From Candidatus Omnitrophota bacterium (GTDB lineage Bacteria; Omnitrophota; Gorgyraeia; JAFGHF01): 64,000 bases of DNA. The first letter of the stretch is position 1. Each line of letters starts with the position of its first letter. Made by a program: the position numbers and the translations under genes. The stretch covers positions 2,119 through 66,118 of the forward strand of contig JAFGHF010000063.1 of assembly GCA_016939375.1 (NCBI GenBank). The letters run 5' to 3'. Positions 17,601-62,923 of this stretch are shown here, one piece after another. The notes under the pieces were generated by a model. It did no database searches, was not told the DNA's origin, and worked only from the letters and a program-made list of their open reading frames with translations.

Positions 17601-17621
17601 TCGCCCTCGAGCTCTATATAG

Positions 17622-17667
17622 AGGGACAGTTCTCCGATTGGCGCAAGAACCGGTCTTGATTTTTAGA
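17622..17667. repeat. Copy B of the ~41-46 nt element (pilin 3' UTR / intergenic)
   Basis: gggacagttctccgattggcgcaagaaccggtcttgatttt; same orientation as copy A. It is followed on the plus strand by a small CCCTC...GAGGG hairpin around a palindromic CTCTATATAGAG. Confidence 0.7.
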
Positions 17668-18127: not shown

Positions 18128-18221
18128 TGCTCCCCCTTGTGTTTTTATTCCCTTTTTATATATTTTACAATCTTCAAAGAAGTTAGGCAACTTATATTTA
18201 TAAGTCCACTTATTATTCGTT

Positions 18222-19436: not shown

Positions 19437-19438
19437 CT

Positions 19439-44783: not shown

Positions 44784-44812
44784 TTGATTATTATGTAGCC
44801 AAGTGCTATACT
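44784..44812 (+). promoter_or_regulatory. Sigma-70-type promoter TTGATT-N17-TATACT; near-leaderless
   Basis: -35 at 44784-44789, -10 at 44807-44812, ATG at 44823. Confidence 0.55.
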
Positions 44813-44822
44813 ATTATGTAAC

Positions 44823-45497
44823 ATGAAAACGATATTGAACCGAACCCTGCTTTCCAGTCAAGATTTTAGACGGCTGAAAGAGTCTTTTTTTTCATCTTCC
44901 CCTCATCAGGCAAGCCCATCTCATACAAACATAAAGAAAAAAGTGATAATGACCGCGTCTTTGGCCTTCGTTGTCTTGCTTATCGGTTTCGCATTTTTTT
45001 CTAATTTTGACATCGTCATCTTATCTAATCCCAACCATATTTTTGGAAACGACGCGATAGACCTGCTCTCCAAAGAAGAACTTGCCACGGCTTCTATCAT
45101 AGCCCCGGCGGGAAATTCAAAAATAGCGAAAAAGCTTATACTCGTGGATATCCCTTTTGACCGCAAAGCCGGTTTTAGCCTGAATTTTAAAGACAAAATG
45201 GACATGTCCGATTCCAATGTAGCCCTGGTCTTAAAAAACCCCGGACAGGATTTTAATATAGACGTGGTCTTACGCGACAACCGTTTTTTCTCCAATTCGC
45301 TTAATCCTATTACGCTTGAGGTGTCGGGGGCAACTGAAACATCGGAATATATCAAAGTCCCCATAAATATCGAACATAGCAATATTTCCAACATCAACCT
45401 CTTGGGCATAAGCCAATTACGTTTTGTGTTCTCTCAAAAAAAGGAAGATTCTTTACCTGTTTTTGTAAAAAACGTCTTGTATGAAAAAAGGAGGTAG
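44823..45497 (+). CDS. Hypothetical single-pass membrane protein (224 aa)
   Basis: One TM (ASLAFVVLLIGFAFF) followed by a ~170 aa extracytoplasmic region. Confidence 0.5.
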   Translation: MKTILNRTLLSSQDFRRLKESFFSSSPHQASPSHTNIKKKVIMTASLAFVVLLIGFAFFSNFDIVILSNPNHIFGNDAIDLLSKEELATASIIAPAGNSKIAKKLILVDIPFDRKAGFSLNFKDKMDMSDSNVALVLKNPGQDFNIDVVLRDNRFFSNSLNPITLEVSGATETSEYIKVPINIEHSNISNINLLGISQLRFVFSQKKEDSLPVFVKNVLYEKRR

Positions 45498-45500
45498 GGA

Positions 45501-46527
45501 TATGATGAAGGTCATATCTTTAGTAAATCAAAAAGGCGGCTGCGGAAAGACCACGACCGCTGTCAACCTAGCATATGCCTTTGCCAAACGAGGCAATCGC
45601 ACTTTATTGATCGATCTGGACCCGCAGGCACACGCCACATTCTCATTGGGCATCACCCCCAATTTGACCACTGCCGATCTATTGGAACATGTAATCGAAA
45701 ACCGTCCTTTTAATCCAAAGGAATTTTTTGTCTGGCGCAAGGACGATCTATCCTTGCTGCCGGCAAGCATAGGCCTAAGCGCATTGGAAAACACTATTAA
45801 CAGACAAAACAACAAGCTGGAAATATTGACAAAAATGCTGATGAATATAGACGCCCATTTTGATTATTGCATAATCGACTGCCCCCCGAATCTAGGCGCT
45901 TTAACACTTAATGCCCTGGTCGCCTCAAGTTATTCGGTGGTTCCTCTGGGCATATGTGAGTTATCTTTAAGAGGCGTGGAAAACTTGAATAGTATCTTGA
46001 GCATGCTTTTTGAGCATCGTAAAAAGGCGCCCTATATACTCTACCTCATCACACAGGTGGATAGGCGTTTTAGGTATAGCGAAAATTTCTACAATAAGGT
46101 CAAAGAACAATTTAGAGACCAATTGCTCTCTACCGCGATCAGGACCAATATCCACCTGCGCGAGGCGGCTGCCTTTGGCAAAAGTGTGTTTGAATACAGA
46201 AGCGACTCCCGCGGAGCACAGGATTACAAACAGCTGGCCCAAGAAATCGAGTCGATAACCCAAAGGCCATCGCTAGTGCAACTATGCTTAAAGGGAATGG
46301 GGCATAACGAGGTATATGTGGTAGGAGAATTCAACGAATGGCGCAAGCACAGAAACTTCCAGTTGAAGAAAGTCGATGACGGCACCTGGAGCATCTCCCT
46401 GCCGCTTAAGCGAGGGACATACCGCTATAAGTTTATCGTCGATAACGAGTGGATTAACGATCCTTCGAATTCTCTTCAGGAAAATGACGCCTTTGGCGGG
46501 AAAAACTCTATACTATTTGTACGCTAG
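45501..46527 (+). CDS. ParA/MinD-family ATPase fused to a C-terminal CBM48 (AMPK-beta-type glycogen-binding) domain
   Basis: Deviant Walker A KGGCGKTTTAVNLA, then a C-terminal VVGEFNEW...GTYRYKFIVDNEWINDP...FGGKNSILFV. An AAAGGAGG RBS is present. Confidence 0.75.
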
Positions 46528-46853
46528 ACCCTGCAGCCGCAATTTTTGTTCCGTAAAATCGTAATCTGTTTTCTATAAGAGTCTACAAATCGGGTTTGCT
46601 TACTCTGCCCGCGAGCGAGGTTTTCAGCCAGCGGGCTTTTGTGTTTATATCCCCTCTTTTCCATCTCCCGGACCAGCTTTTGGTGCCTTGTATATAAAGC
46701 CCGCAACCTGCCTTTCCATCTTAAGGTCTCGGGGTGTCTGGCGTAGCCTTTTTTGTTTTCGGTAAGTATCACCCACAAGGCATGTAATTCCCTGTGTTCG
46801 CCAAGCAGATGGTTACGGCATAACTTATCCGGGGCTATATCCCAAATCCTCAT
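46524..46853 (-). CDS. Pyrimidine dimer DNA glycosylase (endonuclease V/DenV family)
   Basis: MRIWDIAPDKLCRNHLLGEHRELHALW; the true start is the ATG at 46853. Confidence 0.75.
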   Translation of the reverse strand: MRIWDIAPDKLCRNHLLGEHRELHALWVILTENKKGYARHPETLRWKGRLRALYTRHQKLVREMEKRGYKHKSPLAENLARGQSKQTRFVDSYRKQITILRNKNCGCRV

Positions 46854-46864
46854 CGTACATCCTC

Positions 46865-47455
46865 TTAATACGGGCAACTTTCTATGCCGTGTTTTTGGTA
46901 ATAACGCTGATGGTAGTCCTCGGCCTGGTAGAATTCCGAGGCCGGCTGTATTTGTGTCACTATTTTATTTTTATAGCTGCCTGATTGCTGCAGTCTTTCT
47001 TTTGAGCTTAAGGCCGCTTGCTCTTGCTCATGGCCATGAAAGAACACCGCCGAGCGATACTGGCTACCTACATCCGGTCCTTGGCGGTTAAGAGTAGTGG
47101 GGTCATGAATCTTCCAGAAGACGTCCAAAAGCTCACCGTATGAGATCTGTCGCGGATCAAATTGCAACTCTAGAGCCTCGGCATGACCGGTCTTGCCGGT
47201 GCATACATCTTCATACGTAGGATCCTTGAAGTGGCCGCCGGTGTAGCCGACTCTAGTGGAGACGACCCCTTTTAATTTAACAAAGGCCGCTTCCACGCCC
47301 CAAAAGCAACCCGCGGCAAAAGTGGCTTTCTGCAATTTTTGCCCAGCTGCGTCAGTAGTATCCATAAGACCCTCCTGCGCCAAAATACAGGTACCAGAAA
47401 AAAGTAGTACAACAAAAACAACGACCTGCCAAAAATTCCTATTGAATATTATCAT
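46865..47455 (-). CDS. msrA: Peptide methionine sulfoxide reductase MsrA (with signal peptide)
   Basis: [10 protein letters not shown] active-site motif. Confidence 0.9.
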
Positions 47456-48544: not shown

Positions 48545-49354
48545 TTATTGGGGCTTGAGAAAATCGGTATATACCCCGTAGACTCCTCTTCTCCTTAACT
48601 CCTGGCGTAAAAAATCCTCATTGACCGTATGTACATAGGAAGGTACTCCGATTCTGCGCAATTTCAAAGGCAAGTCGTTAAGCGCGCGATAAACAGGCAT
48701 AGCGACCGCTAATAAATCTTTTTTTCGAGCAAAACTCAAGACATCCCGGTCAGAATAAAGCGAGCGATATAGAGTCAGGATGATATGTTCGTAGCCCATG
48801 CCCTTTGCGAGAGGATATTCCTCGAAAAAATAGATCTGCGCGATAAAGTTGCTTAACAGCTGGGGATATTTTTTTCTGATCAGGCCTAAAGCCCTTATGT
48901 TTTCGCTCTTGGCATCAGTTACTATATAGACATCCCGATGATCTACCATCCAGCCTGTCAGCTCCTCTAAAGACAACTGCGTTAATCCTCCTTGCATCTT
49001 AAGTCGCATAAAATCTTCGAGCGTATGATCCGCGAAGGATACTCCATAAAGCCTCTGCAGGGTCTCTCCCCAATCGTGTATAAGCACCAGCCGCCCATCG
49101 CTTGTCCAGTTAAAGTCCACTTCAATAAATTTAAATCCCTTGTCGTAGTTTGAATCTAAGGCCTGCAGCGAATTCGTGAGCGTAAGGGACTCTATTCCCC
49201 CGCCCGCATGGGCGATAAGCTCAGGCAGCTTGGATTGTCCAAATCTGTAATCCTCTTCTTGCCTTAGAAACTTATCTTTGAGCGAGAAAACCAATCCTAA
49301 AAAGATAATCAGGATGACCGATACCCATAAAACTGCCTTTTTGACTTTAATCAT
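48545..49354 (-). CDS. Glycerophosphodiester phosphodiesterase (GDPD)-like protein
   Basis: HAGGG...IEVDFNWTSDGRLVLIHD. Confidence 0.6.
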   Translation of the reverse strand: MIKVKKAVLWVSVILIIFLGLVFSLKDKFLRQEEDYRFGQSKLPELIAHAGGGIESLTLTNSLQALDSNYDKGFKFIEVDFNWTSDGRLVLIHDWGETLQRLYGVSFADHTLEDFMRLKMQGGLTQLSLEELTGWMVDHRDVYIVTDAKSENIRALGLIRKKYPQLLSNFIAQIYFFEEYPLAKGMGYEHIILTLYRSLYSDRDVLSFARKKDLLAVAMPVYRALNDLPLKLRRIGVPSYVHTVNEDFLRQELRRRGVYGVYTDFLKPQ

Positions 49355-51162
49355 CTTTCTTTTGCCTTATACCACTGATCTATCTTGCGCAAAGAAAATT
49401 GCTTTCCGATCAAAATATCCCTGCTTAAGACCTTGATATGTCCTAACCAGGCAGATACTTTTCTGCATACCCTTGCCTTACTATCGCCTTTACATAAGTT
49501 TATGTAGTCATCATCGCCCACTACAAGGCTGACTCCCGCCAATGTCCGTATGTGCAAGTCGCTAACTGGTGCAAACATATCCAATTGGGCAAAACCGGGT
49601 GAGCCCAATAAGTTAAAGATGATTCCGGGAATCTCATACATAGCTATAGTCCCCGTACGCACCGGCCCTTTTTTCCCATCGATTATTATAAGCGGGGCAC
49701 TGGCATATCTTCTATACATCGCCGGCGTAAATTCGTCGCGGCAAGGGATAAAAAGACCGGACTCCACATAAGCCCGGTAATTGGCCCCGAGCATGGGGAT
49801 ATGGTCTCCTAATATTACCAAAAGGGCATCGGGGTCTTCCCTCCTTATCACTTTTATAAACTCCATTATCTCCTGGGTGCTGTATCTAATGGAATTGGCA
49901 TAGCTCGCTACTTCTTTTACCTGGGAGTCACATTCAATGACAGTGGGCCTGGTTTGCGGATCAAGCAAAAACGGCCAGTGTCCGGTAAGGGTAAGTATAT
50001 AGAGGAGCTTCGGCCCTGCCTTGTGTCTTTGCCTGGCGATCTGCCAGGATTGACGATAAAGCGACTTATCAGAGAGCGTCCATTCATTGATATCATCAAG
50101 CTTAAAGTCATCTATTGAATAATAAAAATCGAACCCCAGCCTGTGATAGGCATTCAGCCTGTTCCAATAAGTGGGGATATAGGGATGCAGGGCGATGCTC
50201 TCATATCCGCATTCGGATAAAAGCCTGGGCAATGCCGGGATCTTATTTTTCACGCTGGCGTGAAACATTATCCTTCTATCAAAAAGATTGGCCGGCTGTC
50301 CGCTTAAGACCTCGAATTCCGTATTAGCCGTATGGCCTCCGTAAACAGGGCTAAGCACCCAAGAGTTGCCGCAGCTATCCCAAAGTGCCCTAAAACCAGG
50401 GTCAAAAGGGTCTTGGCTGAAATTGACTCTTTCTAAGAGCGTCACATCCCAAAGCCCTTCCATAATTATGATTATTACATCTCTCTTATCAAATTCTGAA
50501 GCGCGAGCATAACCTTCGCCTTTTATTCTCAGTCCTGCCAAAGCTGCTTCTACCTCTTTCTGATCGGGCGCCTGCAGGCGCTCCATGGAAAAGCGCGCCC
50601 CGTTATAAAGAAGATACACAGCCGCTCCACTTTTCTGATAATTATTGAGCTGACGCCAGAGCTTGAACTTATATCTTGATTCTAAGGCATCCACGATGGG
50701 TCGGGGATAAAACACTATAAACGAACTGGCGAGCGCGATTATAATAACCGCCACTAAAGACTCTCTTTTGATCTTGAGATTGATCAGAAAAAGGACTAAG
50801 AGCGCGATAAGCGGCAAGACCAGAAAAAACCTCTGCGCTGAGTTAAGGATGTTATATAAAGCCCCGAATGAATAAATATCATCAATGGTGATAGGTGAAC
50901 CTAAAAGCGATATCTTTATGGCATTGCCTATATAAAATATCCCCATAAAGATAAATTGGGTGAGTAAAAATAAGATGGCCTTTCGTGAAAAAGCAAACAA
51001 CAGATAACCCAATAGGACTTGTAGCATCCAATCGGGAAAAAGATGCCACCCCAAACATTGCAAGGAATATACCGCCTCCACATATATCTGCAGGAAAAGA
51101 TAAAATATGGATGCCGATAAAAGCGGAAGGAATATTTTTTTATCTAAGGGTTTATCCATCAA
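49351..51162 (-). CDS. LTA synthase family protein (membrane-anchored, sulfatase-fold)
   Basis: N-terminal TM helices and YGGHTANTEFEVLSGQ. Confidence 0.8.
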   Translation of the reverse strand: MMDKPLDKKIFLPLLSASIFYLFLQIYVEAVYSLQCLGWHLFPDWMLQVLLGYLLFAFSRKAILFLLTQFIFMGIFYIGNAIKISLLGSPITIDDIYSFGALYNILNSAQRFFLVLPLIALLVLFLINLKIKRESLVAVIIIALASSFIVFYPRPIVDALESRYKFKLWRQLNNYQKSGAAVYLLYNGARFSMERLQAPDQKEVEAALAGLRIKGEGYARASEFDKRDVIIIIMEGLWDVTLLERVNFSQDPFDPGFRALWDSCGNSWVLSPVYGGHTANTEFEVLSGQPANLFDRRIMFHASVKNKIPALPRLLSECGYESIALHPYIPTYWNRLNAYHRLGFDFYYSIDDFKLDDINEWTLSDKSLYRQSWQIARQRHKAGPKLLYILTLTGHWPFLLDPQTRPTVIECDSQVKEVASYANSIRYSTQEIMEFIKVIRREDPDALLVILGDHIPMLGANYRAYVESGLFIPCRDEFTPAMYRRYASAPLIIIDGKKGPVRTGTIAMYEIPGIIFNLLGSPGFAQLDMFAPVSDLHIRTLAGVSLVVGDDDYINLCKGDSKARVCRKVSAWLGHIKVLSRDILIGKQFSLRKIDQWYKAKER

Positions 51163-51179
51163 ATACTATCCGCCTCATG

Positions 51180-51626
51180 CTATAGCCAGCGTCTTACCTC
51201 TTTTTTATAATCCATATATCGTTGGCCAAAGGTATTTTGCAGTTTCTGTTCTTCGAAAGAAATATAAATACGGTCCAAGGCGGCCAGAAAGAGCGGGCAG
51301 ATGAACAAAGCGCTTAATGAGCCTAAAAGGCTGGCTACCCCCAGCAACACCAGGACCATCCCCAGATACATCGGATTGCGGCTGATCCGAAAGGGACCTG
51401 AAGTCTCCAATTGGATAGGGGTATCATGAGGCTCGATAGGGATATTTTTTTTCTTAAACATGTTATCGGGCCAGATGTTTAATATTATCCCTAAGGATAT
51501 TAACAAGATCCCCAAATAATTATACGGGGGATAGATTATTTTTTTTATCGGTAAAACAAAATGGGATGTGATACATAAGATCAAAAAGACAAACAAAACC
51601 GCAGGTGGCATGACCTTAAATCTCAC
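51180..51626 (-). CDS. Isoprenylcysteine carboxyl methyltransferase/PEMT-family membrane methyltransferase
   Basis: RNPMYLG motif. Confidence 0.7.
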   Translation of the reverse strand: MRFKVMPPAVLFVFLILCITSHFVLPIKKIIYPPYNYLGILLISLGIILNIWPDNMFKKKNIPIEPHDTPIQLETSGPFRISRNPMYLGMVLVLLGVASLLGSLSALFICPLFLAALDRIYISFEEQKLQNTFGQRYMDYKKEVRRWL

Positions 51627-51644
51627 CTTATCTCAATCATCCTT

Positions 51645-51857
51645 TCATCTATTCAGCCGAAACAATAAAAGCATTAATCCTAAGGCCAATGCCGATTGGA
51701 TAAAGACCGCTATCCAATAGGCAACGGGCTGGCTGCTTCTTCTATATATAATACCCTCTTTTACTTCGGCCTTTTTCGTTTTAAGGGCCGAACATACGAC
51801 TTTTAAAAGATAGGCGCAGGATACGAGGATTAATACATTGACGGCTATTTTATGCAT
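51645..51857 (-). CDS. Small hypothetical membrane protein (70 aa)
   Basis: Two hydrophobic helices; ORF only. Confidence 0.3.
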   Translation of the reverse strand: MHKIAVNVLILVSCAYLLKVVCSALKTKKAEVKEGIIYRRSSQPVAYWIAVFIQSALALGLMLLLFRLNR

Positions 51858-51864
51858 TATGCGA

Positions 51865-53232
51865 TTAAAAATAACAGGCGCTATTCTGGAAGGCCAGGTC
51901 TATGCGCAAGGTCTTGTACAACATAAACAGCAGCAATAGCACGTATGAGACCCTAAGCGCATTGCGCGGGAAAATTTTTGAGATGGCTTTGGTCTTTTCC
52001 CAGATATAAAATTGAGTTTTGGCTGAAAGCAGGATAAGAAAGATAGCTACAGGCAATATATACCGGCACTGGTAATTCTTCCACCAGATAAAGAAAATAA
52101 GAATAATAAATGAAGACAGGCAGAGAAAAAAGTATGACTGAAAATGTTCCCTGTCCAGGGCTAAAAGGACTAACCCTAAGAAAGAAAAAAGGTAAAAAGG
52201 AGAAAGCTCGATCAGTCTCCCCGGATAGAAATATTGCGGTGCCTTGGCAAACATCCCTAACGACCAACCGGTGCTGGGGATATAATTTAGGCTGAAGCTA
52301 TTTACGATAAATCTGGTCAAGACGACCAAAAAGGCCAAGGTCGAAACGCTGGCGATGCTAATCCTTAGTCTTTTATTTTTCGAGAAGACCGAAACAGCTA
52401 TCAAGAAGGCCAAAATGACAAAAGAAGCAACTATGCGCTTTTGGTTACGCCATTGCAGGCGTTGAAAGACACCGTGGGTCATAGATATATCTTGTATGAA
52501 GCTCACCCCATATACTTTGTAGTTCCAGCAAAGCCACGGCAGAAGCATCAAAAAAGGTATAAAAAGGCTGAAGATAAAGACCTTGTTTTTGAAAAATTCG
52601 CGCTTAAAGCACAACGCATAAATGATGATAATAAACAAAGAAAGCAGGCCTGGGTATTTTGTAAGTCCGGCTAATCCGACACAGATCCCGCTTGAGATTA
52701 AAAAATATGGGTTATATTTTTTTGTAGCCCGTATGAACAGGTAGACCGATAGGGCGATAAAAAATGCCAAAGTGGTCTCCATCCATACCCTCTGCGAACA
52801 GACCCAGCCAATAGGTTCAATTGACATAAGCAATGCCGCATAAACGCCGATCTTGTTATTAAATAATAGAGAACCCAAAAAATAGGCAAGCGCAACCAGA
52901 AGTACACCAAAAAACAAAGAAACAGCAAAAGCGGCATATATCGACCTACCGAACATCTGATAACTTAGGGAAATGAGTATCGTATATAGGGGAGGGTGTT
53001 TAAATAACGGCTTCTTCAAGTAATCGGGAAGCTGGCGGCCTCTTTTTGTGTCTTGGGCATAGATGCGTATAGAATTATAGCTTTCCAGACCCTGTTCACC
53101 GATCTGGTAAGCCAGCGTAGCATAGACACTTTCGTCATAGGTACGGTTTGACTTGGCATCAAAGGTGTTATACCTTAAGAAAAAGGTGAAAAGGACAAGG
53201 ATTATTAGGATTACGCTTATGTCTTTTTTCAT
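51865..53232 (-). CDS. GT39/GT83 (ArnT/PMT-like) membrane glycosyltransferase
   Basis: 455 aa polytopic; DESVYA motif near the N-terminus. Confidence 0.65.
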   Translation of the reverse strand: MKKDISVILIILVLFTFFLRYNTFDAKSNRTYDESVYATLAYQIGEQGLESYNSIRIYAQDTKRGRQLPDYLKKPLFKHPPLYTILISLSYQMFGRSIYAAFAVSLFFGVLLVALAYFLGSLLFNNKIGVYAALLMSIEPIGWVCSQRVWMETTLAFFIALSVYLFIRATKKYNPYFLISSGICVGLAGLTKYPGLLSLFIIIIYALCFKREFFKNKVFIFSLFIPFLMLLPWLCWNYKVYGVSFIQDISMTHGVFQRLQWRNQKRIVASFVILAFLIAVSVFSKNKRLRISIASVSTLAFLVVLTRFIVNSFSLNYIPSTGWSLGMFAKAPQYFYPGRLIELSPFYLFSFLGLVLLALDREHFQSYFFLCLSSFIILIFFIWWKNYQCRYILPVAIFLILLSAKTQFYIWEKTKAISKIFPRNALRVSYVLLLLFMLYKTLRIDLAFQNSACYF

Positions 53233-53297
53233 TCTCCGCTATAATATCACCCTATATATAACTTGGTCAAGGACAATATGTTCTAAGCCGGTAAAAA

Positions 53298-54038
53298 TCA
53301 TTTCCGGGCAAAAACAAATATGGAAACACCGAACACGCGGGGCATCAAACGGTGTTTTTCCAACAAAGCCAATAGGCTTCTTAAAATATCTCTTAAGGGA
53401 TCTATCCTTATCTTATCCAAAGGAGGCATCATGTATTCAGAATTATAGACTTTAAATCCATGATTTTGGACTAGACCTAAAATCATTCTTTTTGTATATA
53501 TCCTTGCATAAGCGTATTTATCATGTACCTTTTTAGGCAACCAGGAGAAAAATGGGACTCTGTTCCAGGGCAACAGGGGAAGTTTTGCGCCATGGGTCTC
53601 AAAAAACCACCATTTATTAGGCACCGAAAGCACAAGCATCCCTCCCTTTTTTAAAACCCTATACATCTCATCTAAGGCCTTTTCCTGAGGGGCTATATGC
53701 TCTAAGGTCTCGATGCAGGTCACCACATCAAAGGCTTCATCGGCAAGGTCCAAAGAGGTCAGATCCATCTGTTTTATTTCACAATTGTCTATTCCCCGGG
53801 CCTGGACCTGGCCCCTAAACTCTTCCAGCCTCTGCCCTTCTATGTCTACGGCGGTACATTTTTTTACATGCTTGAGATATTCTAATGTCTGTGCACCGTT
53901 ACCGCATCCGGCATCAAGCAAATTGGCGTTTTTTAAATCGGTATTTCGCAGAATGATCTCCATTCTCTTTTGAATGCCAAAGTAGCCGTATTCTATCGGG
54001 GCGCCCAATGCAATATTTTTTACCTCTGATCGGCGCAT
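53298..54038 (-). CDS. Class I SAM-dependent methyltransferase
   Basis: LLDAGCGNG motif. Confidence 0.85.
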   Translation of the reverse strand: MRRSEVKNIALGAPIEYGYFGIQKRMEIILRNTDLKNANLLDAGCGNGAQTLEYLKHVKKCTAVDIEGQRLEEFRGQVQARGIDNCEIKQMDLTSLDLADEAFDVVTCIETLEHIAPQEKALDEMYRVLKKGGMLVLSVPNKWWFFETHGAKLPLLPWNRVPFFSWLPKKVHDKYAYARIYTKRMILGLVQNHGFKVYNSEYMMPPLDKIRIDPLRDILRSLLALLEKHRLMPRVFGVSIFVFARK

Positions 54039-54047
54039 AAAAAGCCT

Positions 54048-54941
54048 CTATCCCCTTATACCCTGTAAAAGTCCCTTTATGTAGGCCTTAAAGATCCCTG
54101 GCTTGCCGCGAAGCCGCTCATAAATAGAGCGCACTGTTATATAACAAAGAACACAAATAGGTATTGTGGTATAGTACCATATCTTTAAGGAATATCTTCT
54201 AAAAAACCTTACTCCGCTCTTAGCCTTAAGGTAGGCCTTATCGGGGCTTAAGCCCCCGCCTATACTCTTTGATATCTTATGCCATATTTTCGCACCCCGC
54301 ACGCAGACAACTCTATAGCCCTGAGCTCTCGCGCGCAGACAAAGATCGGCATCCTCAAAATAGGCAAAATAGGCTGGGTCAAACATACCGATCTTTTCTA
54401 TTACTTCCCTCTTTATCATTAAGGCGCACCCCGTCTGATAGTCCTCATCGACAATCCCCTCATATCGGCCTAAGTCTTTTTTTCTGTTGCCGATGTGCCA
54501 GCTGTTGCCCAACAAAGATAGAATCCTTCCACCGGCAAACCAAATTTTATCCTTTTGATGATAATAAAGGATCTTCGGGCCAATAATACCAATTTCTGTG
54601 TCTTTAGTCGCTACATCCAACAAGTCCTTGAGAAGAGCCGGAGATACAACAGTGTCATTATTCAAAATCAATATGTAGTTGGCCTGCCTTTCTAAAGCAT
54701 ATTTAATTCCTATATTATTTCCCTTGGCAAAACCAAAATTTTCATCATTTTCTATAAATTCCGCTTCGGGAAACCTTTCCCTTAGATACTCAACGGAACC
54801 ATCGTTAGAACCATTATCTATAATCAAGATTTTAAAATTGTCGTAATCCAGGTTCTTGAGCGAATCAAGACCCTCCTCTGTGTCATTTTTGCCGTTATAA
54901 TTTAATATGTTTATATATACCAAGGGATAAGTCTTTTCCAC
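54048..54941 (-). CDS. Glycosyltransferase family 2
   Basis: YINILNYNG...DNGSNDGS; DxD. Confidence 0.85.
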   Translation of the reverse strand: MEKTYPLVYINILNYNGKNDTEEGLDSLKNLDYDNFKILIIDNGSNDGSVEYLRERFPEAEFIENDENFGFAKGNNIGIKYALERQANYILILNNDTVVSPALLKDLLDVATKDTEIGIIGPKILYYHQKDKIWFAGGRILSLLGNSWHIGNRKKDLGRYEGIVDEDYQTGCALMIKREVIEKIGMFDPAYFAYFEDADLCLRARAQGYRVVCVRGAKIWHKISKSIGGGLSPDKAYLKAKSGVRFFRRYSLKIWYYTTIPICVLCYITVRSIYERLRGKPGIFKAYIKGLLQGIRG

Positions 54942-54943
54942 GT

Positions 54944-56470
54944 CTATTCCTGTAGAAATTTTTTCAATTTTGAGTCTTTAAAGGAAAATCTCGCGCCCAA
55001 TTTGCTGCTAATATTATCCAAAATTATCAAATCACTTTTTTCCAGGCTCTTGGTAAACAATATTGACATCAAAGCAATCAACAATATGACTACTGCTAAA
55101 GGAAATATAAACAAATTGTTACTTGCAATAATATCTTTAACTAAAGAAAAGAACAATAAAGACAAAATCACCGATAATGCCGCAGGCCTAAGATAATATT
55201 TTTTAAACAGGTGAATTCTCGCAAAGATGTAAACTTCAACCGATGCTAAAATATTTATTATTATGTACGAAACTGCCGTGGCTATGGCTGCCCCGGATAG
55301 TCCATAATCGGGGATCAATAATATATTTAAAAACAGATTTACTGCTGCCCCCAATAGAAAATTAATTGCAGAAAATGCTTGCCGTCCGATGACAATGAGC
55401 GTCATCCCATTTAGACCCATGAAGGTATGGAAGAAAAAACCGAGGCACAAAAACCTTAAGGCCATATCGGACTGCAGATATTCTTTCCCGAATAAGATCC
55501 CTATGCAAGAGCGGGGGGCTAAAAATAAAACCATAAAAATAGGCAGGGAGGCGGCGAATATCCACTTAGACGTGCTTACATATATTTTTCTCATATTATC
55601 AAATTCTTTCCTTGAATAGAGGAAAGATATCACGGGCAAGAAAATAAAAGATGTGGATTCCAAAACAAAGTTGATAGTCTGGGAAAGTGGACGGGCGGCA
55701 TTGTACATCCCTACCGTTGCCTCGGTTTTATAATAGCCTAAAAGTAAGGTGTCCGACCAGTGAATCACAATATTAAGGATGACGATACCTAAAATAGGAA
55801 GTGAAAAAAGAAGCAGTTCTCTATTCATAGGTAAATGCTTTGCCTTAGGCAGATGCTTGGGTAGGTTCTTTACGGCATAGATGGTCAATATTACCGCCGT
55901 CAATATAGTGGAAGATAAATATGCGAATATGACTCCGGAAAGCCCTCGGGACAAGACAACGGCCAGGCCTAGAAAAATAATCAAACTTAGGTAGCTGAAA
56001 ATATTATAAAAGTAGACTTTTGGCTTTACTTCGCCAAATCCTTGAAATATCGAAACCAATATGTTGACAATCACATAAAAGGGAACTGTCAATGCCAGTA
56101 TTTTCACTATGCCCGATAGCCCTGATTTATGTAAAAGATCAAAGACGCCTAACTGCGCCAAAAAGAAGACAACCATGACGGAAATAACACTTCCCAATAG
56201 CGCAAAGAAGATGGCAGCTTTGATGATGCCCCAAACCCGGGCGTAGTCACCCTTGGCCATTAAAGCGGAGATGAATCTAGCTATGCTGCGCACCAAAGCC
56301 AAAGAACAAATGGAGACAAGGATACTAGTAATAGCCAGGCCAAGAGATAATAAACCGTATTCTTCTACGGCTACATATCTTACTATTATTACTCTTACCG
56401 CTAAATTTAGCAGAGCACCCAATCCATAGCCAATAAAGATTATACCCGCACCCTTGGCTATCTTTTTCAA
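54944..56470 (-). CDS. Wzx-like oligosaccharide flippase / polysaccharide biosynthesis protein
   Basis: 508 aa, ~14 TM. Confidence 0.7.
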   Translation of the reverse strand: MKKIAKGAGIIFIGYGLGALLNLAVRVIIVRYVAVEEYGLLSLGLAITSILVSICSLALVRSIARFISALMAKGDYARVWGIIKAAIFFALLGSVISVMVVFFLAQLGVFDLLHKSGLSGIVKILALTVPFYVIVNILVSIFQGFGEVKPKVYFYNIFSYLSLIIFLGLAVVLSRGLSGVIFAYLSSTILTAVILTIYAVKNLPKHLPKAKHLPMNRELLLFSLPILGIVILNIVIHWSDTLLLGYYKTEATVGMYNAARPLSQTINFVLESTSFIFLPVISFLYSRKEFDNMRKIYVSTSKWIFAASLPIFMVLFLAPRSCIGILFGKEYLQSDMALRFLCLGFFFHTFMGLNGMTLIVIGRQAFSAINFLLGAAVNLFLNILLIPDYGLSGAAIATAVSYIIINILASVEVYIFARIHLFKKYYLRPAALSVILSLLFFSLVKDIIASNNLFIFPLAVVILLIALMSILFTKSLEKSDLIILDNISSKLGARFSFKDSKLKKFLQE

Positions 56471-56511
56471 AGAATCGTTTAATATTTCTTGCGTTTTCAG
56501 AATTACCCCTT

Positions 56512-58089
56512 TTATATTTTTCCGGATTGCCTTAGTCTTCTGACGGCATCTTCAACTTTTTCTCTCTCAATAATTTTCCTATATCCTACAGGTCTTATAG
56601 CCGGTGGAGAATTATCCCTGAAAATATGTTTTAGCACTTTTCCGTCTGCATTCTCCGGAACAGGCAAACCAAATATATGCAGTACAGTGGGAAATACATC
56701 ATAAATCTTTACATCATCTAATCTTTGGCCGCTAGGCCTTATATTAGGGCCACAGGCAATAAATATACCGTTCGGCCTGTGGCTACCATAATCCTCTTTA
56801 TAATCAATTACCGCTTTGCTTATCAGGCTGGGTATTATTGTATTTATATTATCATCAAGCCTAATGACTAAATCAGGCAAAACATTAGGTTCCCGGCTAT
56901 TGTAAATTTCTTGTTTTTTAAAGACAGAAATGGGTATGCGTTTTCCGGTCTTAGGGTCCGTTAATTCCTTTAATTTACTGATTATTGCGTCTTGCGTTGA
57001 TTCATATTCTTCGGGATTAATAGCTCCTGCCGGTTCTCTTCCTTTTACATTAAGCCATATTTCCCCGGCTGCCGTATGGGCAAATGCTTTAGTACGCTTC
57101 CAGTCTATATTCAATGCCTCGACCCTGGGAACCCTGACCTCTTTTCTTAGTTTTATCTGCATCGGCCTCGGCAAAATACCAATAATCTTTCTGGCCACAT
57201 TCCTAAGCTTTAGTTTTTCAATATATCTCTGTAGATATAAAACCAATTCTTTGTAACCAAGCTTCTTCTTTAGAGTCAAATAGCCGTTTTTCAAAAGCCA
57301 CTGGTTAATATTGAAGGTCCTTTCTCCCGTACCAAATCCGTGGTCGGAAACCACAAAAACGTCGGCATCTGCCCCCTTAAGCTCCAATAACTCTTTTACT
57401 TTTTGATCTAATTCTCTATACATATCTAAAATGGCCTCTTGATCGTCCCAAAAGCGATGTTGAATTCTATCCAGGGCAGTAAATACAAAAAAAGCGAAGT
57501 CCCATTCTTGACTTTTTAACAAAAAGTTGAATGCCTGAGAATGTTTGAGAAGGACATCTTTAACCTTGACCCGCAATTTATCTCGGCTATAAACTTCTAT
57601 CAACATGTCTTTATCAAAATCGATTTCTGTCACGTCGATCTTATAGCCGCTACATACATTATTTAAGTTCTTCTCCAGTTCAGGTGGATAGGTTAAGTTT
57701 TTGCCGCAGCTGTACCAGCCGGCTACCATCTGGCCGTTTATCTCATATGCGCTATAGACATGAGGCACATTGGCTATACATATCTTCTTCCCATTATCAG
57801 AAAGAATATCCCAAAGGTTGTTTTTAGGAAGGCTCCTTTTGTAAAAAAATGGTTTAAAATCATAGCCTATTTTTACCATTAAAGTCGAAAAACCCAATTT
57901 GCCGGGCTCGATGCCCGCGGAAAGGCTGTTCCAGGCCGGTATCGTCCAGGCAGGTATTGTGCTTTGAAAATCAGCCCAGACGCCGTTGTCCATAAGCCTT
58001 TTGATTGTAGGAAGCTCTCCCCTGTCCACAGCCGGCTTCATTAGGCCCCAGGTTGCTCCGTCTAGGCCGATAATAATTACTTTAGACAT
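56512..58089 (-). CDS. Nucleotide pyrophosphatase/phosphodiesterase (type I phosphodiesterase, alkaline phosphatase superfamily)
   Basis: IIGLDGATW N-terminus. Confidence 0.75.
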   Translation of the reverse strand: MSKVIIIGLDGATWGLMKPAVDRGELPTIKRLMDNGVWADFQSTIPAWTIPAWNSLSAGIEPGKLGFSTLMVKIGYDFKPFFYKRSLPKNNLWDILSDNGKKICIANVPHVYSAYEINGQMVAGWYSCGKNLTYPPELEKNLNNVCSGYKIDVTEIDFDKDMLIEVYSRDKLRVKVKDVLLKHSQAFNFLLKSQEWDFAFFVFTALDRIQHRFWDDQEAILDMYRELDQKVKELLELKGADADVFVVSDHGFGTGERTFNINQWLLKNGYLTLKKKLGYKELVLYLQRYIEKLKLRNVARKIIGILPRPMQIKLRKEVRVPRVEALNIDWKRTKAFAHTAAGEIWLNVKGREPAGAINPEEYESTQDAIISKLKELTDPKTGKRIPISVFKKQEIYNSREPNVLPDLVIRLDDNINTIIPSLISKAVIDYKEDYGSHRPNGIFIACGPNIRPSGQRLDDVKIYDVFPTVLHIFGLPVPENADGKVLKHIFRDNSPPAIRPVGYRKIIEREKVEDAVRRLRQSGKI

Positions 58090-59005
58090 TCTCGGATCCC
58101 CTTTTTTTAGTCTTTTTAGAAAATATAAACCGGAAAAACCTTTTGCAAAAATTCGCTACACCCAAGTTGCTTTTTCCCATTAACTTTCTAAGCGTGCTTT
58201 TTAATGCGGGGTATATAATAGAGGCCAAAATAAACAGAAATTTTTGATTAATGCTGCCATATCGCTTCAAGGCCATGATCTTGGAATCGAGTGATAAAAA
58301 ATAATGCTTTCTCCACCTTTCTTCGCTTTTCTTTTTAAATCCGCCCCGTTTATGATAGACAATGGCTTCGGGCGCAAATTTAGCCCTCCAGCCTCTATTG
58401 TGTGCCCGCCAAGATAGCTCTGCATCTTCATAGTTACTGCCATATTCTTCATCATACATACCGATGTCTTCTATCATCTTTCTACTGTATAAACATGCAG
58501 CCGAACATGCCCCGATAATTTCAAGTTTATTATCAAATTGTCCTTTATCTATCTGGTCATGACCCCGGTCGATGATTCTGCCAAATCGAAATATATGTCC
58601 TGTCGAATCTATAATATGAGGATTGTCCATTCTCAATACCTTAGGTTGTACAATTCCGATTTGATGATCGCTTTCAGCAACAACTACTAATTTTTTTAGA
58701 CAATCGGGGTCAGCCTTTGCATCGCAGTTTATTAAAAAAACATACTGCACATCATTGTTTGTCAAAGATTCTCTCATCCCCCGATTATATCCTCCGGAAG
58801 AACCGAGATTTTCTCTGTTAACAATCAATCTTACATCCGGAAACCCCTTTTTAATTGCCTCCTGAGAGCCGTCCGTAGAACAATTATCTACTACGATAAT
58901 CTCATAATTGCCATATAGTAACTTTTGTACGCTATCTATAGCGTCAAGCACATACTCTATTCCATTATAGTTGATGATGATTACGCAGACTTTCGGTTCT
59001 TGCAT
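58082..59005 (-). CDS. Glycosyltransferase family 2
   Basis: VIIINYNG...DNCSTDGS. Confidence 0.85.
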   Translation of the reverse strand: MQEPKVCVIIINYNGIEYVLDAIDSVQKLLYGNYEIIVVDNCSTDGSQEAIKKGFPDVRLIVNRENLGSSGGYNRGMRESLTNNDVQYVFLINCDAKADPDCLKKLVVVAESDHQIGIVQPKVLRMDNPHIIDSTGHIFRFGRIIDRGHDQIDKGQFDNKLEIIGACSAACLYSRKMIEDIGMYDEEYGSNYEDAELSWRAHNRGWRAKFAPEAIVYHKRGGFKKKSEERWRKHYFLSLDSKIMALKRYGSINQKFLFILASIIYPALKSTLRKLMGKSNLGVANFCKRFFRFIFSKKTKKRGSENV

Positions 59006-59021
59006 CTTTAAAACTCCGTTT

Positions 59022-59231
59022 TTAACCTAAATAGCCCAGATCTTCGAGACGCTTCTTTATCTGTCCATCGTCTTCTGTTTCATTTTTGGATACGTCATCG
59101 GCAACGATCTCTTTCAGCACAAAAGTGATATAATCAGACAGCGAGTTAAAACTGCTGTTTTCAATACGTTTCTCCACCGCCTCTAAGATATCCTCAGGAA
59201 TAGTTATCGTCACTTCCTTTTTATTTGGCAT
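59022..59231 (-). CDS. Ribbon-helix-helix (CopG/Arc/MetJ-like) small DNA-binding protein
   Basis: 69 aa, KEVTITIPEDILEAVEKRI. Confidence 0.55.
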   Translation of the reverse strand: MPNKKEVTITIPEDILEAVEKRIENSSFNSLSDYITFVLKEIVADDVSKNETEDDGQIKKRLEDLGYLG

Positions 59232-59283
59232 AGCAGACTCCCTTTTTTGAATCTTATCCGATTCCTTTTTAACCCTCTATTGC

Positions 59284-60678
59284 TTACTTAAGCACTTTCT
59301 TTATTTCACCGTCTTGTATATTTATTAGTTTTTCTATCTCCTGCCTAAGGGTTTTGGTGAGATCTTTCTTTTCATTAGCAAGATTAACCAATTCTTGGGG
59401 GTCATCTTTTAAATTAAATAGCTCTTCTCTTTGATGATGAACAAATCCACATCTCGGACATATTCTACGAGGGCCCAAAGAAAAAGAATATTTCCACTCA
59501 TTATCTATAATACCTATCCTTTTGCCTACACCGATTCGCTCATGCATAAAACCAAATAGAACCGGTCTTGGCTTAACACGCGTTGGTTCATTTATTAACG
59601 TCAATAAGCTCTCTCCGTCAAAAATATGGTTAGTTTTTATATTTAAGAAATCTAAGATGGTGGGGACGACATCTATGTGGCGGGCAAATGGCCTGACCCT
59701 GCTACCTTTGTATGCTCCCTTGGGAAATTTTATGATCAAGGCTGCTTTAAGGATTTCCTCAAAATGGGTATGGTGGCCAAAATAGGCATTGTGCTCCCCC
59801 AGCCCCTCACCGTGGTCGAAAGTCACTATTATCATTGTATTATCAAAAAGGTTGTTAGCTTTAAAATAAGAAATCAAGCTACCTATCTGCTCATCAATAT
59901 AATTTAGGGAACCGATATATCTTTGCACTATTTCATCGGTAGACCTCGCAGAATAAGTACACATCTTCATATATCTTTTATACTTCGGTCCGCTGATTCG
60001 GTCAATAATCTCTTTGATCTTTTTATTATATTTGGACTTAACGTGTTTAAACCTCCTGACATATTGCGGCGGCGGGTCATAGGGGGTATGGGTGTCCCAA
60101 AAATGCAAAAACAGGAAAAAAGGCCTTTTATCAATGATACCCTTTGCATGTTCAACTACTTTTTCCGCATAATCATAAGCAGCAATGGTTCCAGGTAGGT
60201 GCTTAAGAAACCAGTAAGGAAGTCTGGGGAAAATCTTACAAATCGCCCTGTGTCCAAAATCAAGCATTGACTGCATCCTGTTTTTTCTAAGGCTGCCGCT
60301 ATAATAGTCAAAACCCGTTTTGTACCAACGGCCTAAGAAGTCAATGGCTGAGGTCACATATCCGCTCTCTTTTAAAATTCTGGGAAGAAATTGGTCGTCT
60401 TTAAGAGAAACAAACCTTTTTTCATATTTGCTAACCCACGGCCCGTGGTGAATTATACCGTGCGACCAGGGCCACAAACCAGTCAAAATACTGGTATGTA
60501 CGGGGTCTGTTCCGAATAAAAAGGAATAGGCGTTATCAAATACTACGGATTCTCCGGCCAGGCTATCAATATTGGGCGTTGCCCCTAAACTACTGCCGTA
60601 ACAACCTAAAAAATCCTTTCTAAACGCATCCAGTGTTAAGAGAACGATATTGCAGGGAGCATCTGAAGCTTGGTTCAT
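59284..60678 (-). CDS. Sulfatase-family (alkaline phosphatase superfamily) protein lacking the formylglycine C/S-x-P-x-R motif (T-D-P-V-H instead)
   Basis: IVLLTLDAFRKDFLGCYG...TPNIDSLA...FGTDPVHTSILTG and C-terminal ELFNLKDDPQELVNLA. Confidence 0.7.
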   Translation of the reverse strand: MNQASDAPCNIVLLTLDAFRKDFLGCYGSSLGATPNIDSLAGESVVFDNAYSFLFGTDPVHTSILTGLWPWSHGIIHHGPWVSKYEKRFVSLKDDQFLPRILKESGYVTSAIDFLGRWYKTGFDYYSGSLRKNRMQSMLDFGHRAICKIFPRLPYWFLKHLPGTIAAYDYAEKVVEHAKGIIDKRPFFLFLHFWDTHTPYDPPPQYVRRFKHVKSKYNKKIKEIIDRISGPKYKRYMKMCTYSARSTDEIVQRYIGSLNYIDEQIGSLISYFKANNLFDNTMIIVTFDHGEGLGEHNAYFGHHTHFEEILKAALIIKFPKGAYKGSRVRPFARHIDVVPTILDFLNIKTNHIFDGESLLTLINEPTRVKPRPVLFGFMHERIGVGKRIGIIDNEWKYSFSLGPRRICPRCGFVHHQREELFNLKDDPQELVNLANEKKDLTKTLRQEIEKLINIQDGEIKKVLK

Positions 60679-60694
60679 TTATTTAGTCTCTTTT

Positions 60695-61843
60695 TTATCG
60701 TTTTGGCAGATTCGAGTCTGCTGTCAGCATAAAGCTTTCTATTGCCTTAACCACCTTATCCCAGGCAAAAAAACCCTTTCTTTTCTTTATATTTTCTACG
60801 AAGTCTGTGTGATCCTGTTGAAAAAAACTTAAAATTGCTTGCGCCAAAGAATTGCTATCTTCGGGTTTGGCTATATAACCTGTTTTGCCGTCCAAAACCA
60901 AATCCGGCATAGGACCTATATCAGTAGTAACAACCGGCTTATCGAAAGCAAGGGCTAAAGCCACTGCCCCACTCCCCGTTACACTTATATAAGGAAAAAC
61001 GGCTAAGTCTGCTGCCTCAAAATATTTTTCTACCTCTTCGTTAGGGATATACCGGTCGATAACCTTTACCCTTTTTCCTATGTTTAACTTATTTATCAAA
61101 TCGATATAATAGGATTTATTTTTCCAAAATTCACCGGCTACAATAAGCGTAATGTCTTCTAATTCCTTTAATACTCTGGGCATTGCTTCCAACAAATACT
61201 TCAGTCCTTTATATTCTCTTACAATACCAAAAAATAAAATAACTCTTCCCTTAATCCCCAATTTATCCTTAGCCCCATCTTTACTTAACCCCCCTTGTCT
61301 AAATACATCATATATGGGATGGAAGGCTGTTTTTATGTCGGCCCCTGGAATCAGTTTGAGCAAATTCTCTTTCTCTTTTTGGGAATGCACGATAAAATAG
61401 TCGCCATTGCTCAAAGCGATGCGCGCGCAGGCTCTATCAAGAAACCTTGATTCGTGCATTTGAGTATTATGGCAGATAAAGAGGACTTTTGTTTTGCAGG
61501 ATAATTTTACTATCCAACAAATCGCTGCAAATTGGGGGGTCCAGAATATATGCCACCACGGAAGAATCAAAAGCTTTACCGAAGATCTTTTGATTAATAG
61601 CGCGGTTTTAATCCAGGAAAACGGATTTAAGGAATCGAGAGTAAACTTTATATTCTCTTCTTTTATTTTTGTCTTACTTTCATCCAAATCTGTCTGCGCG
61701 GGATATAACCACTTTGGATATTGTCGGCGGAAGGAAAAAAACACAACCCGATGTTTTTTTATGAGCTCTCTGTAGAGTAACGTTGTATAATGTGAGATAC
61801 CGCCTTTGTAAGGATAGGAAGGGCCGACTAAAGCTATTTTCAT
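60695..61843 (-). CDS. Glycosyltransferase family 4
   Basis: 382 aa; C-terminal GT4 EX7E-like region. Confidence 0.8.
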   Translation of the reverse strand: MKIALVGPSYPYKGGISHYTTLLYRELIKKHRVVFFSFRRQYPKWLYPAQTDLDESKTKIKEENIKFTLDSLNPFSWIKTALLIKRSSVKLLILPWWHIFWTPQFAAICWIVKLSCKTKVLFICHNTQMHESRFLDRACARIALSNGDYFIVHSQKEKENLLKLIPGADIKTAFHPIYDVFRQGGLSKDGAKDKLGIKGRVILFFGIVREYKGLKYLLEAMPRVLKELEDITLIVAGEFWKNKSYYIDLINKLNIGKRVKVIDRYIPNEEVEKYFEAADLAVFPYISVTGSGAVALALAFDKPVVTTDIGPMPDLVLDGKTGYIAKPEDSNSLAQAILSFFQQDHTDFVENIKKRKGFFAWDKVVKAIESFMLTADSNLPKR

Positions 61844-61852
61844 TCAATAGGC

Positions 61853-62803: not shown

Positions 62804-62923
62804 ACCCCCCCCTAAATATTCAGACCTTTTTTACTATTTATTAGTATTGTACACAAAATAGAAATCCTCTGCAACATATTTTATTGCAAGGAGTTAAAGA
62901 CAATCTGGCCCTGGCGAGTGTGC

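Follow-up and report, generated by a model that had tools for sequence, protein, structure and literature searches.

ParA/MinD ATPases are a general bacterial means of placing chromosomes, plasmids, carboxysomes, chemoreceptor arrays, the division site and flagella. Storage granules can be placed too: in Ralstonia, PhaM links the polyhydroxybutyrate (PHB) granule to a cellular scaffold and so secures its inheritance by both daughter cells. Glycogen is the commonest bacterial carbon store, yet we know of no machinery that positions it, and our full-text literature searches found none. Here we describe a two-gene locus in a 64-kb stretch of DNA from a Candidatus Omnitrophota bacterium (contig JAFGHF010000063.1, positions 2,119 to 66,118; hereafter the window). 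Its first gene encodes a single-pass membrane protein, here called the partner, and its second encodes ParA-CBM48, a ParA-type ATPase fused to a glycogen-binding module of the CBM48 family. An initial annotation of this DNA had suggested that the pair is a dedicated positioning or partitioning system for glycogen or another alpha-glucan. We put forward glycogen positioning as a well-motivated hypothesis, based on what the sequences of the pair and of its relatives have in common.

Relatives were collected by scanning one genome per GTDB species, which returned 593 ParA relatives. The best 80 of these, all but two of which match through CBM48, were used for all counts of genomic context. The ATPase gene of the window and its parts are as follows:

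45502..46527, plus strand: ParA-CBM48 gene, 341 aa plus stop; AlphaFold2 (AF2) mean predicted local distance difference test score (pLDDT) 89.8
45505..46263, plus strand: ParA/Soj-type ATPase domain, residues 2-254; AAA_31 at 1.3e-45
45532-45552, plus strand: deviant Walker A motif KGGCGKT, in the ATPase domain
46270..46524, plus strand: CBM48/AMPK-beta-type glycogen-binding module, residues 257-341; PF16561 at 1.3e-14

Pfam assigned the ATPase domain to AAA_31 (E 1.3e-45; 155.9 bits against a cut-off of 27) and CbiA (E 2e-21; 76.6 bits against 25.4). No NCBIfam model rose above its cut-off for the ATPase, and NCBI therefore has no dedicated family for the ParA-CBM48 protein. The closest solved chains by sequence were ParA (8ray, 6e-38), Thermus Soj (1wcv) and Helicobacter pylori Soj (6iub), at 30-34% identity, and in the same comparison MinD and McdA reached only about 1e-14 (McdA 7e-14, 22% identity). 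The AlphaFold model of the ATPase, computed as a monomer (pLDDT 89.8), matched Soj/ParA structures in Foldseek with TM scores of 0.90-0.94 relative to the targets; none of the Foldseek matches was a PDB entry spanning both the ATPase and the CBM48 domain. The ATPase is far nearer to Soj/ParA (33% identity, TM 0.9) than to BcsQ (19% identity). Its deviant Walker A motif reads NQKGGCGKT, and the signature lysine K11, the lysine K16, the Walker A' aspartate D38, the Walker B aspartate D126 and R189 are invariant in 85/85 family members. The Walker A cysteine was in the search pattern used to collect the loci, and its invariance is partly built in. Motif, aspartates, hidden Markov model (HMM) matches and fold are all those of a ParA/MinD (SIMIBI-class, deviant Walker A) ATPase, as the initial annotation had concluded from KGGCGKTT. 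The protein is, judged from these features, a ParA/Soj-type ATPase with an intact active site; it belongs to the ParA/MinD family by every criterion that could be tested, and does not fall into the ParABS, MinD, BcsQ or McdA subfamilies.

Three narrower assignments were considered and rejected. The protein is not the chromosomal ParA of a ParABS system, as a scan of the window and of all flanks of the 80 loci found no ParB-box motif (GERRxRA) and the neighbouring gene encodes a membrane protein. Membership of MinD was rejected because the C-terminus is a folded CBM48 rather than an amphipathic helix and because NCBIfam minD_bact scored 47 bits against a cut-off of 212.9; no min genes lie near the pair in the window. 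BcsQ was likewise rejected (TIGR03371 at 90.6 bits against a cut-off of 157.85), and bcs genes were absent. DNA binding by Bacillus subtilis Soj depends on two arginines, R189 and R218, which correspond to R195 and R224 of Caulobacter crescentus ParA (PMC7229837). The equivalent of the first (R189) is invariant among the 85 sequences. The second position holds His in the window and K/R in 67/85 relatives; two residues beyond it K/R is found in 83/85, with basic residues persisting at 218/220 across the family.

The C-terminal module is, on the evidence of its sequence, a genuine AMPK-beta/CBM48 domain with its sugar-contact residues kept, and is predicted to bind glucan. Pfam, which the initial annotation had proposed as the check on this domain, bore out the assignment: PF16561 (AMPK1_CBM) matched at 54.6 bits against a cut-off of 26.8 (E 1.3e-14) over residues 274-345 of the longest open reading frame (ORF), which has 348 aa, and Pfam CBM_48 matched the ATPase C-terminus at 1e-5. 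The best PDB sequence matches were the CBMs of AMPK beta1 and beta2 (5e-8), followed by the CBM48s of pullulanase and SEX4. In AMPK beta1, the substitutions W100G and K126Q abolish glycogen binding, and mutations of W133 and G147 weaken it (PMC6274970). The HMMER alignment pairs these four residues with W280, K310, W317 and G332, respectively. Their conservation is near complete: the W280 position is W in 85/85 sequences from several phyla, the W317 position is W in 84/85, the G332 position is G in 84/85 and the K310 position is K/R in 76/85, while the equivalent of AMPK N150 is N/D in 82/85. Between the ATPase and CBM48 lies a segment of 12 to 66 residues across the family, which, given this variation in length, would behave as a tether. 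Inspection of the ATPase sequence revealed neither a signal peptide nor a transmembrane segment, so that CBM48 is predicted to face the cytoplasm; this in turn makes glycogen its obvious ligand. Metagenome-assembled genomes (MAGs) of Omnitrophota encode glycogen synthesis (PMC8542988).

The gene immediately upstream encodes the partner:

44823..45497, plus strand: partner gene, 224 aa, stop codon TAG at 45495-45497; family HMM E 2.8e-29
44847..44891, plus strand: cytoplasmic N-terminal helix of the partner, SSQDFRRLKESFF, residues 9-23; AF2 helix 9-23
44943..45020, plus strand: transmembrane helix of the partner, preceded by NIKKK, residues 41-66; AF2 helix 45-66, hydrophobicity peak from residue 41
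45138..45488, plus strand: beta-jelly-roll of the partner, CBM-like and predicted extracytoplasmic, residues 106-222; AF2 pLDDT 78-88

The initial annotation of this first ORF as a single-pass membrane protein is borne out: its 224-aa product has one hydrophobic helix, at about residues 41-66. Only 3 proteins were returned when the window partner by itself was used in a word-indexed homologue search, and it took an alignment of the upstream ORFs of related loci to reveal the family. Same-strand ORFs end just before the ATPase in 68/80 loci, and 46 of them, together with that of the window, form one BLAST family. The HMM of this family detected a member in 48/80 loci plus the window (E 2.8e-29), of which 46 lie immediately upstream and co-directional and 2 are divergent. 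Loci with the membrane partner upstream are essentially all Omnitrophota-type. A profile search of 1.84 billion representatives returned 1167 members at E 1e-3 or better. The divergent matches, L016:2313-3188 (-) and L028:2772-3614 (-), are proteins of about 290 aa, and that of L016 matches Mann_GBD_bact and CBM27.

Four parts make up the family architecture: a conserved N-terminal helix, a basic stretch, the hydrophobic helix, and a poorly conserved linker with a beta-sandwich of about 120 residues. Mean BLOSUM scores were 2.21 for the N-terminal helix, 1.13 for the beta-sandwich, 0.49 for the transmembrane helix and 0.14 for the linker. The N-terminal helix, which reads MDKKDIYEHLAKIYLD in the main clade and SSQDFRRLKESFF in the window, is therefore the best-conserved block of the partner and a candidate peptide for contact with the ATPase. 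Searches of Pfam and NCBIfam with the 224-aa partner of the window gave no match. The AlphaFold model had an overall pLDDT of 68.7, rising to 78-88 in the sandwich, for which Foldseek returned CBM6, CBM28, CBM30, CBM11, GH50 CBM-like domains, CIA30 and MAM at E 2e-5 to 2e-3. Members of the partner family also gave weak Pfam matches to CBM30 (7/40, best 3e-5) and CBM_11 (4/40). We rejected assignment of the sandwich to CBM11 or CBM30, since no HMM scored above threshold and the similarity is at the level of the fold, and term it CBM-like. The same sandwich is repeated 2-7 times in proteins of 900-4155 aa, for example P0250 (2608 aa), P0348 (4155 aa), P0374 (3771 aa) and P0272 (2950 aa), and appears to be a widespread, unnamed extracytoplasmic module.

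Lysine and arginine residues around the partner helix number 5.4 in the N-terminal flank versus 2.2 in the C-terminal flank, with the N-terminal flank ahead in 78/86 members. This asymmetry and the repetition of the sandwich in proteins of 900-4155 aa both argue for an N-in, C-out (type II) topology. With its folded domain predicted to lie outside the cytoplasm, only about 40 N-terminal residues of the partner could reach the ATPase. The suggestion that the membrane protein is the partner or anchor of the ATPase is therefore upheld in part: it is a conserved partner, found directly upstream in 46 of the 48 loci that have it, but the predicted extracytoplasmic position of its folded domain speaks against a simple granule adaptor.

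Loci that lack the membrane partner are Myxococcota-type, with a few from Omnitrophota and others. There, the ATPase is followed directly by a gene whose product, of 260-310 aa and without a Pfam match, is a possible alternative partner:

L080:1979-2842, alternative-partner gene downstream of the ATPase
L021:5179-6033, alternative-partner gene downstream of the ATPase
L071:5131-6048, alternative-partner gene downstream of the ATPase
L050:3770-4693, alternative-partner gene downstream of the ATPase
L031:5076-6002, alternative-partner gene downstream of the ATPase
L044:5100-5597, alternative-partner gene downstream of the ATPase

The N-termini of these proteins read MPRDLADVLHYFLP or ...KLGRGLDEVADFWLS / KLGKGLEDISYLFLS, and form a ParB-like peptide of the pattern KLGRGL.../RDLxDVLHYFLP, or also KLGRGLxEV..FLS. 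The LG[RK]GL form is the classical ParA-activating N-terminal motif of ParB proteins, and the peptide would fit a cycle between a ParA-type ATPase and its activator. The segment D-F-R-R-L-K-E-S-F-F-S in the partner of the window fits the spacing of the alternative-partner peptides, D-φ-x-x-φ-x-x-x-F-φ-[SP]; this shared spacing is no more than suggestive of a peptide contact in the membrane partner as well. When the body of the alternative partner (A4) was compared with ParA by hhalign, the match was collinear and weak (probability 5.5%, E 0.007). A degenerate ParA/MinD fold is conceivable for this protein, but we do not claim such a relationship. Upstream of the ATPase, the Myxococcota/'Deltaproteobacteria'-type loci encode a MerR_1 helix-turn-helix protein of about 155-295 aa, as judged from longest-ORF calls (L021, L041, L042, L045, L055, L057, L066, L067, L068 and L080).

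The full ParA-CBM48 architecture forms more than 110 clusters at 90% identity and is present as full-length matches in at least 78 species-level genomes. Among the best 80 loci, 38 are labelled Omnitrophota, 16 'uncultured Planctomycetia/Planctomycetales/Planctomycetota' and 13 Myxococcota or 'Deltaproteobacteria', with one or a few each from Margulisiibacteriota, Krumholzibacteriia, Eisenbacteria, Spirochaetaceae and others. The initial annotation had allowed that this architecture might turn out to be common and already characterised. Common it is, but full-text literature searches (ParA with CBM48, glycogen binding or granules, Omnitrophota) found no paper on it.

Gene neighbourhoods link the family to alpha-glucan metabolism. 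A GH57 gene is nearby in 24 of the 80 loci (Pfam 2e-61 for the example tested), and in 21 of these 24 it is directly upstream of the partner and co-directional with it. Genes for an Alginate_exp-type outer-membrane porin lie upstream of the ATPase in 25 loci, and a DUF4870 membrane protein gene follows the ATPase in 21. The operons examined in the main Omnitrophota clade accordingly run in the order Alginate_exp porin, GH57, partner, ParA-CBM48, DUF4870. The protein at their head is an AlgE-like outer-membrane barrel (e.g., L047:358-1731), and a porin in company with cytoplasmic glucan proteins is left unexplained by the model that we set out below. At L084, whose ATPase is 54% identical, the pair is divergent from a cluster that contains GH57 with DUF3536, GH77, a two-component system, a CBM48-only gene and a GlgA-like GT5 gene; a TreT-like gene is located downstream. 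The CBM48-only gene of this locus, L084:176-454 (-), encodes a stand-alone protein of 92 aa and adjoins the GlgA-like gene. L004 in turn has a convergent GH77-GH57 pair beside ParA-CBM48. Linkage to alpha-glucan enzymes is hence seen in three different arrangements, namely the upstream GH57, the divergent L084 cluster and the convergent pair of L004. The window, L081-L083 and L001-L002 have the pair by itself, surrounded by unrelated genes, and a tblastn search of the 64-kb window for GH57, the porin, DUF4870 and the other conserved neighbours found nothing. Since the pair stays while its flanks vary, the two genes are the conserved core.

Taking these findings together, we give an even chance to the proposal that the two genes form a self-contained module for the spatial organisation of cytoplasmic alpha-glucan (glycogen), providing an ATP-switched link between glycogen and cellular landmarks. 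In such a module, ATP binding would dimerise the ATPase and so present two CBM48 modules, and the dimer would grip glycogen particles through avidity, as MinD does the membrane with its two membrane-targeting helices. The dimer would probably still contact nucleoid DNA, as the R189 equivalent is invariant and basic residues are kept at 218/220. The N-terminal helix of the partner would dock on the dimer in the manner of ParB, MinE and McdB peptides, with one of two effects, stimulation of ATP hydrolysis or retention of the complex at the envelope; the partner itself would be fixed in place through its extracytoplasmic glycan-binding domain. The outcome would be glycogen granules that are distributed, anchored and inherited rather than left to drift. 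It is possible, though we lean against it, that the pair is the first dedicated system for positioning and inheritance of glycogen granules, in which the ATP dimer would assemble on glycogen itself via the fused CBM48, with the cytoplasmic tail of a membrane protein fixed in the envelope serving to cycle or anchor the ATPase. Such wiring would differ from that of every described ParA/MinD system, and would be conserved in Omnitrophota, with variant partners in Myxococcota and other phyla.

Several points weigh against the proposal that the pair organises glycogen. In known ParA systems it is the cargo that bears the activator of the ATPase. In the present pair the ATPase carries the cargo-binding domain and the partner is membrane-bound, so that the classic diffusion-ratchet scheme is not directly transferable. 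With His at the second DNA-binding arginine position in the window subclade, binding of the nucleoid is plausible though uncertain. That the partner helix touches the ATPase is proposed from conservation and from analogy with other systems. The folded domain of the partner is predicted to lie outside the cytoplasm, and neither its role there nor the linkage to a porin is explained by the model. Linkage to GH57 is concentrated in one Omnitrophota clade, so that the 24 loci do not count as separate events. No glycogen gene turned up in the 64 kb when 47 window ORFs were scanned with Pfam, and all relatives of ParA-CBM48 are from MAGs. The original suggestion of a dedicated glycogen or alpha-glucan positioning system thus gains from relatives that adjoin GH57, GH77, GlgA-like and CBM48-only genes, but draws nothing from the gene content of the window, and positioning is still hypothetical.

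Other explanations of the same observations were weighed. The porin, GH57 and DUF4870 membrane protein in the main-clade operon would be at home in an envelope polysaccharide machine, which the ATPase might organise as BcsQ does, localising or gating the trans-envelope export or import of alpha-glucan while the CBM-like domain of the partner handles the polymer in the periplasm. The partner resembles BcsB in combining a periplasmic CBM-like domain with one transmembrane helix, and the ATPase has BcsQ matches, albeit below threshold (Pfam CBP_BcsQ 7e-15, besides the NCBIfam score given above). However, no synthase, glycosyltransferase or inner-membrane transporter is among the families that recur within 4 kb of the relatives, and the GH57 example starts at its catalytic motif, without a signal-peptide-like N-terminus. 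Moreover, the window subclade retains only the pair, with unrelated flanks, and the ATPase is closer to Soj/ParA than to BcsQ in both identity and fold. We consider a role in such a machine unlikely. AMPK-beta senses glycogen and Soj regulates DnaA, and the fusion could conceivably act as a glycogen-sensing switch, in which occupancy of CBM48 modulates the Soj-like ATPase and hence replication initiation, transcription or the timing of division. The nearness of the ATPase to chromosomal Soj/ParA with its invariant R189 equivalent, the MerR-family DNA-binding protein upstream in Myxococcota-type loci and the two-component system inside the adjacent glycogen gene cluster of L084 are all consistent with this. 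Sensing and positioning look alike at the level of sequence, but the conserved partner in Omnitrophota is a membrane protein rather than a DNA-binding one, and apart from MerR the flanks of the 80 loci hold no ParB-box and no other recurrent DNA-binding or replication family, which makes a sensing switch improbable in our judgement.

The tight linkage to GH57, GH77 and GlgA-like genes could also mean that the ATPase is a scaffold that recruits or regulates glycogen enzymes (GH57, GlgA) on the granule without placing the granule itself. CBM48 serves as a targeting module in non-enzymatic proteins such as PTST and AMPK-beta, and plant PTST delivers enzymes to starch, so that a role of this kind for the module has precedent. 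Yet a scaffold leaves unexplained the need for an ATP-dependent dimerisation switch or for a membrane partner with an N-terminal peptide, and in the window subclade the pair stands without such enzymes beside it; we regard it as very unlikely. Finally, the CBM48-fold domain may have lost glucan binding and instead mediate protein-protein contacts, in which case the pair would position the membrane protein or some different cargo. In AMPK-beta, CBM48 makes packing contacts with the kinase domain as well, and the partner has no cytoplasmic link to glucan. Nevertheless, the near invariance across phyla of the stacking tryptophans and of the Gly, Lys and Asn contacts would be hard to explain in a domain that no longer binds sugar. 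The family is also linked repeatedly to alpha-glucan enzymes, and this explanation seems highly improbable.

The two plus-strand ORFs form an island at 44.8-46.5 kb of the window, with minus-strand genes on either side. Two expression signals belong to it:

44784..44812, plus strand: sigma-70-type promoter, -35 box TTGATT at 44784-44789, 17-nt spacer, -10 box TATACT at 44807-44812
45489..45494, plus strand: Shine-Dalgarno sequence AGGAGG, within the end of the partner gene, reading AGGAGG-TAGGGAT-ATGATG

The longest ORF for the ATPase, which contains KGGCGKTT, spans 45481-46527 (348 aa). Its homologues are nearly all about 340 aa long with the N-terminus MK[VI]IS, the identical NCBI protein has 341 aa, and the AGGAGG sequence precedes ATG 45502 by 7 nt; we therefore take ATG 45502 as the true start. 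The gap between the TAG of the partner and this ATG is 4 nt. The genes are tightly coupled without overlapping, in contrast to the initial annotation, in which the ATPase gene overlapped the stop of the first gene. Both genes, as their arrangement indicates, share one promoter and are translationally coupled.

The TTGATT-N17-TATACT promoter reported some 10 nt upstream of the first ATG is present, with an extended -10 TG (TGcTATACT) and 10 nt between the -10 box and ATG 44823. It lies in a 145-nt intergenic region of 29% G+C upstream of the partner, and no Shine-Dalgarno sequence precedes ATG 44823. As a bare consensus match the promoter is at chance level (6 sites in 3.5 kb versus 6.1 expected). 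Eight orthologous loci of the same subclade, with partner proteins 27-31% identical to that of the window where measured, were then compared. The arrangement TTGnnT-N17-TAnnnT ending 6-12 nt before the start codon is kept in 6/8 (window, L081, L084, L001, L002 and L007), with a chance per locus of 0.03-0.6%; 0/20,000 shuffles gave six. It is this conservation across loci, not the consensus match, that leads us to deem the promoter significant. Transcription starting about 7 nt past the -10 box would give a leader of 0-5 nt. Leaderless, or very short-leader, transcription of the partner gene is thus a reasonable reading of the spacing between promoter and ATG. The leaderless transcription claimed initially fits this conserved spacing insofar as the leader would be very short or absent. 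Between the -10 box and the partner ATG is an ATG-TAA 'start-stop' mini-ORF (44816-44821), and the 10-nt string attatgtaac that precedes the ATG is identical in L081.

Upstream of the island, minus-strand genes encode an AMP-binding enzyme, an HGSNAT-like acyltransferase and a spermidine-synthase-like protein; downstream lie a convergent Pyr_excise glycosylase, MsrA and an MshEN protein. The Pyr_excise gene, which encodes a T4 endonuclease V-like pyrimidine-dimer glycosylase (46524-46877, minus strand), overlaps the last 4 nt of the ParA-CBM48 ORF with its 3' end, so that there is no room for a terminator between the two; the same convergent arrangement is found in L081. The 64-kb window further contains nitrogen-assimilation genes, type IV pilus genes, sensor kinases and an envelope-glycan cluster. 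The last of these (49351-63940, minus strand) comprises two Sulfatase-family genes, PMT_2, three GT2 genes, a Polysacc_synt flippase, GT1, a methyltransferase and a phosphodiesterase. The type IV pilus/type II secretion system (T2SS) block (14233-21058, minus strand) includes PilM, T2SSF and T2SSE with MshEN, and inside it, at 15845-16669, is a gene for a 274-aa protein with an F5/8-type-C (discoidin) domain. Scans of the window for tRNAs and, at gathering threshold, for Rfam families returned nothing.

The ParA-CBM48 family is a directly testable candidate, in which a fused domain whose binding site is well understood names the cargo. The partner peptide is of a length that allows synthesis, and the proteins are small and soluble enough for reconstitution in vitro despite their uncultured hosts. 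A cargo-binding domain on the ATPase combined with a partner in the membrane would widen the mechanistic range of the ParA family. For annotation, hundreds of genes in Omnitrophota and Myxococcota that are labelled 'AAA family ATPase / chromosome partitioning protein' would receive this assignment instead.

Compared with known systems, the closest ATPase sequences and structures are those of ParA/Soj-ParB-parS (8ray, 1wcv and 6iub), with which the family shares the invariant R189 equivalent. It differs from them in having an extra CBM48, His in place of the second arginine in the subclade of the window, and no ParB-box in the window or the flanks of the 80 loci. MinD/MinE offers a parallel in that the C-terminal appendage could bind its surface only as the ATP dimer, via avidity, with a partner helix acting on that dimer; however, a folded CBM48 replaces the amphipathic membrane-targeting helix, there is no MinC or MinE, and the ATPase is Soj-like (MinD E 1e-14). 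As in McdA/McdB, PpfA/TlpT and ParC/ParP, a deviant Walker A ParA-type ATPase is encoded beside a small partner with a conserved N-terminal peptide, and, like McdA/McdB and the orphan ParA systems, the pair would be dedicated to a non-DNA cytoplasmic cargo. In contrast to these systems, the ATPase itself bears the CBM48 cargo module, and an integral membrane protein takes the place of a cargo-bound adaptor as its partner; sequence similarity to McdA is also low. BcsQ is likewise a ParA/MinD-family ATPase tied to polysaccharide biology with membrane or envelope partners, but here the BcsQ matches are below family thresholds, bcsA, bcsB, bcsR and bcsE genes are absent, and the bound polymer would be a cytoplasmic alpha-glucan. 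The idea of granule tethering is the same as for PhaM, which is not an ATPase and is unrelated in sequence. With the CBM of AMPK-beta and with plant PTST/FLO6, the family shares the CBM48 subfamily, the sugar-contact residues and the placing of the module on a non-glycosidase protein for targeting to glycogen or starch; whereas those modules belong to a kinase scaffold or a coiled coil, the bacterial one described here is fused to a P-loop ATPase switch.

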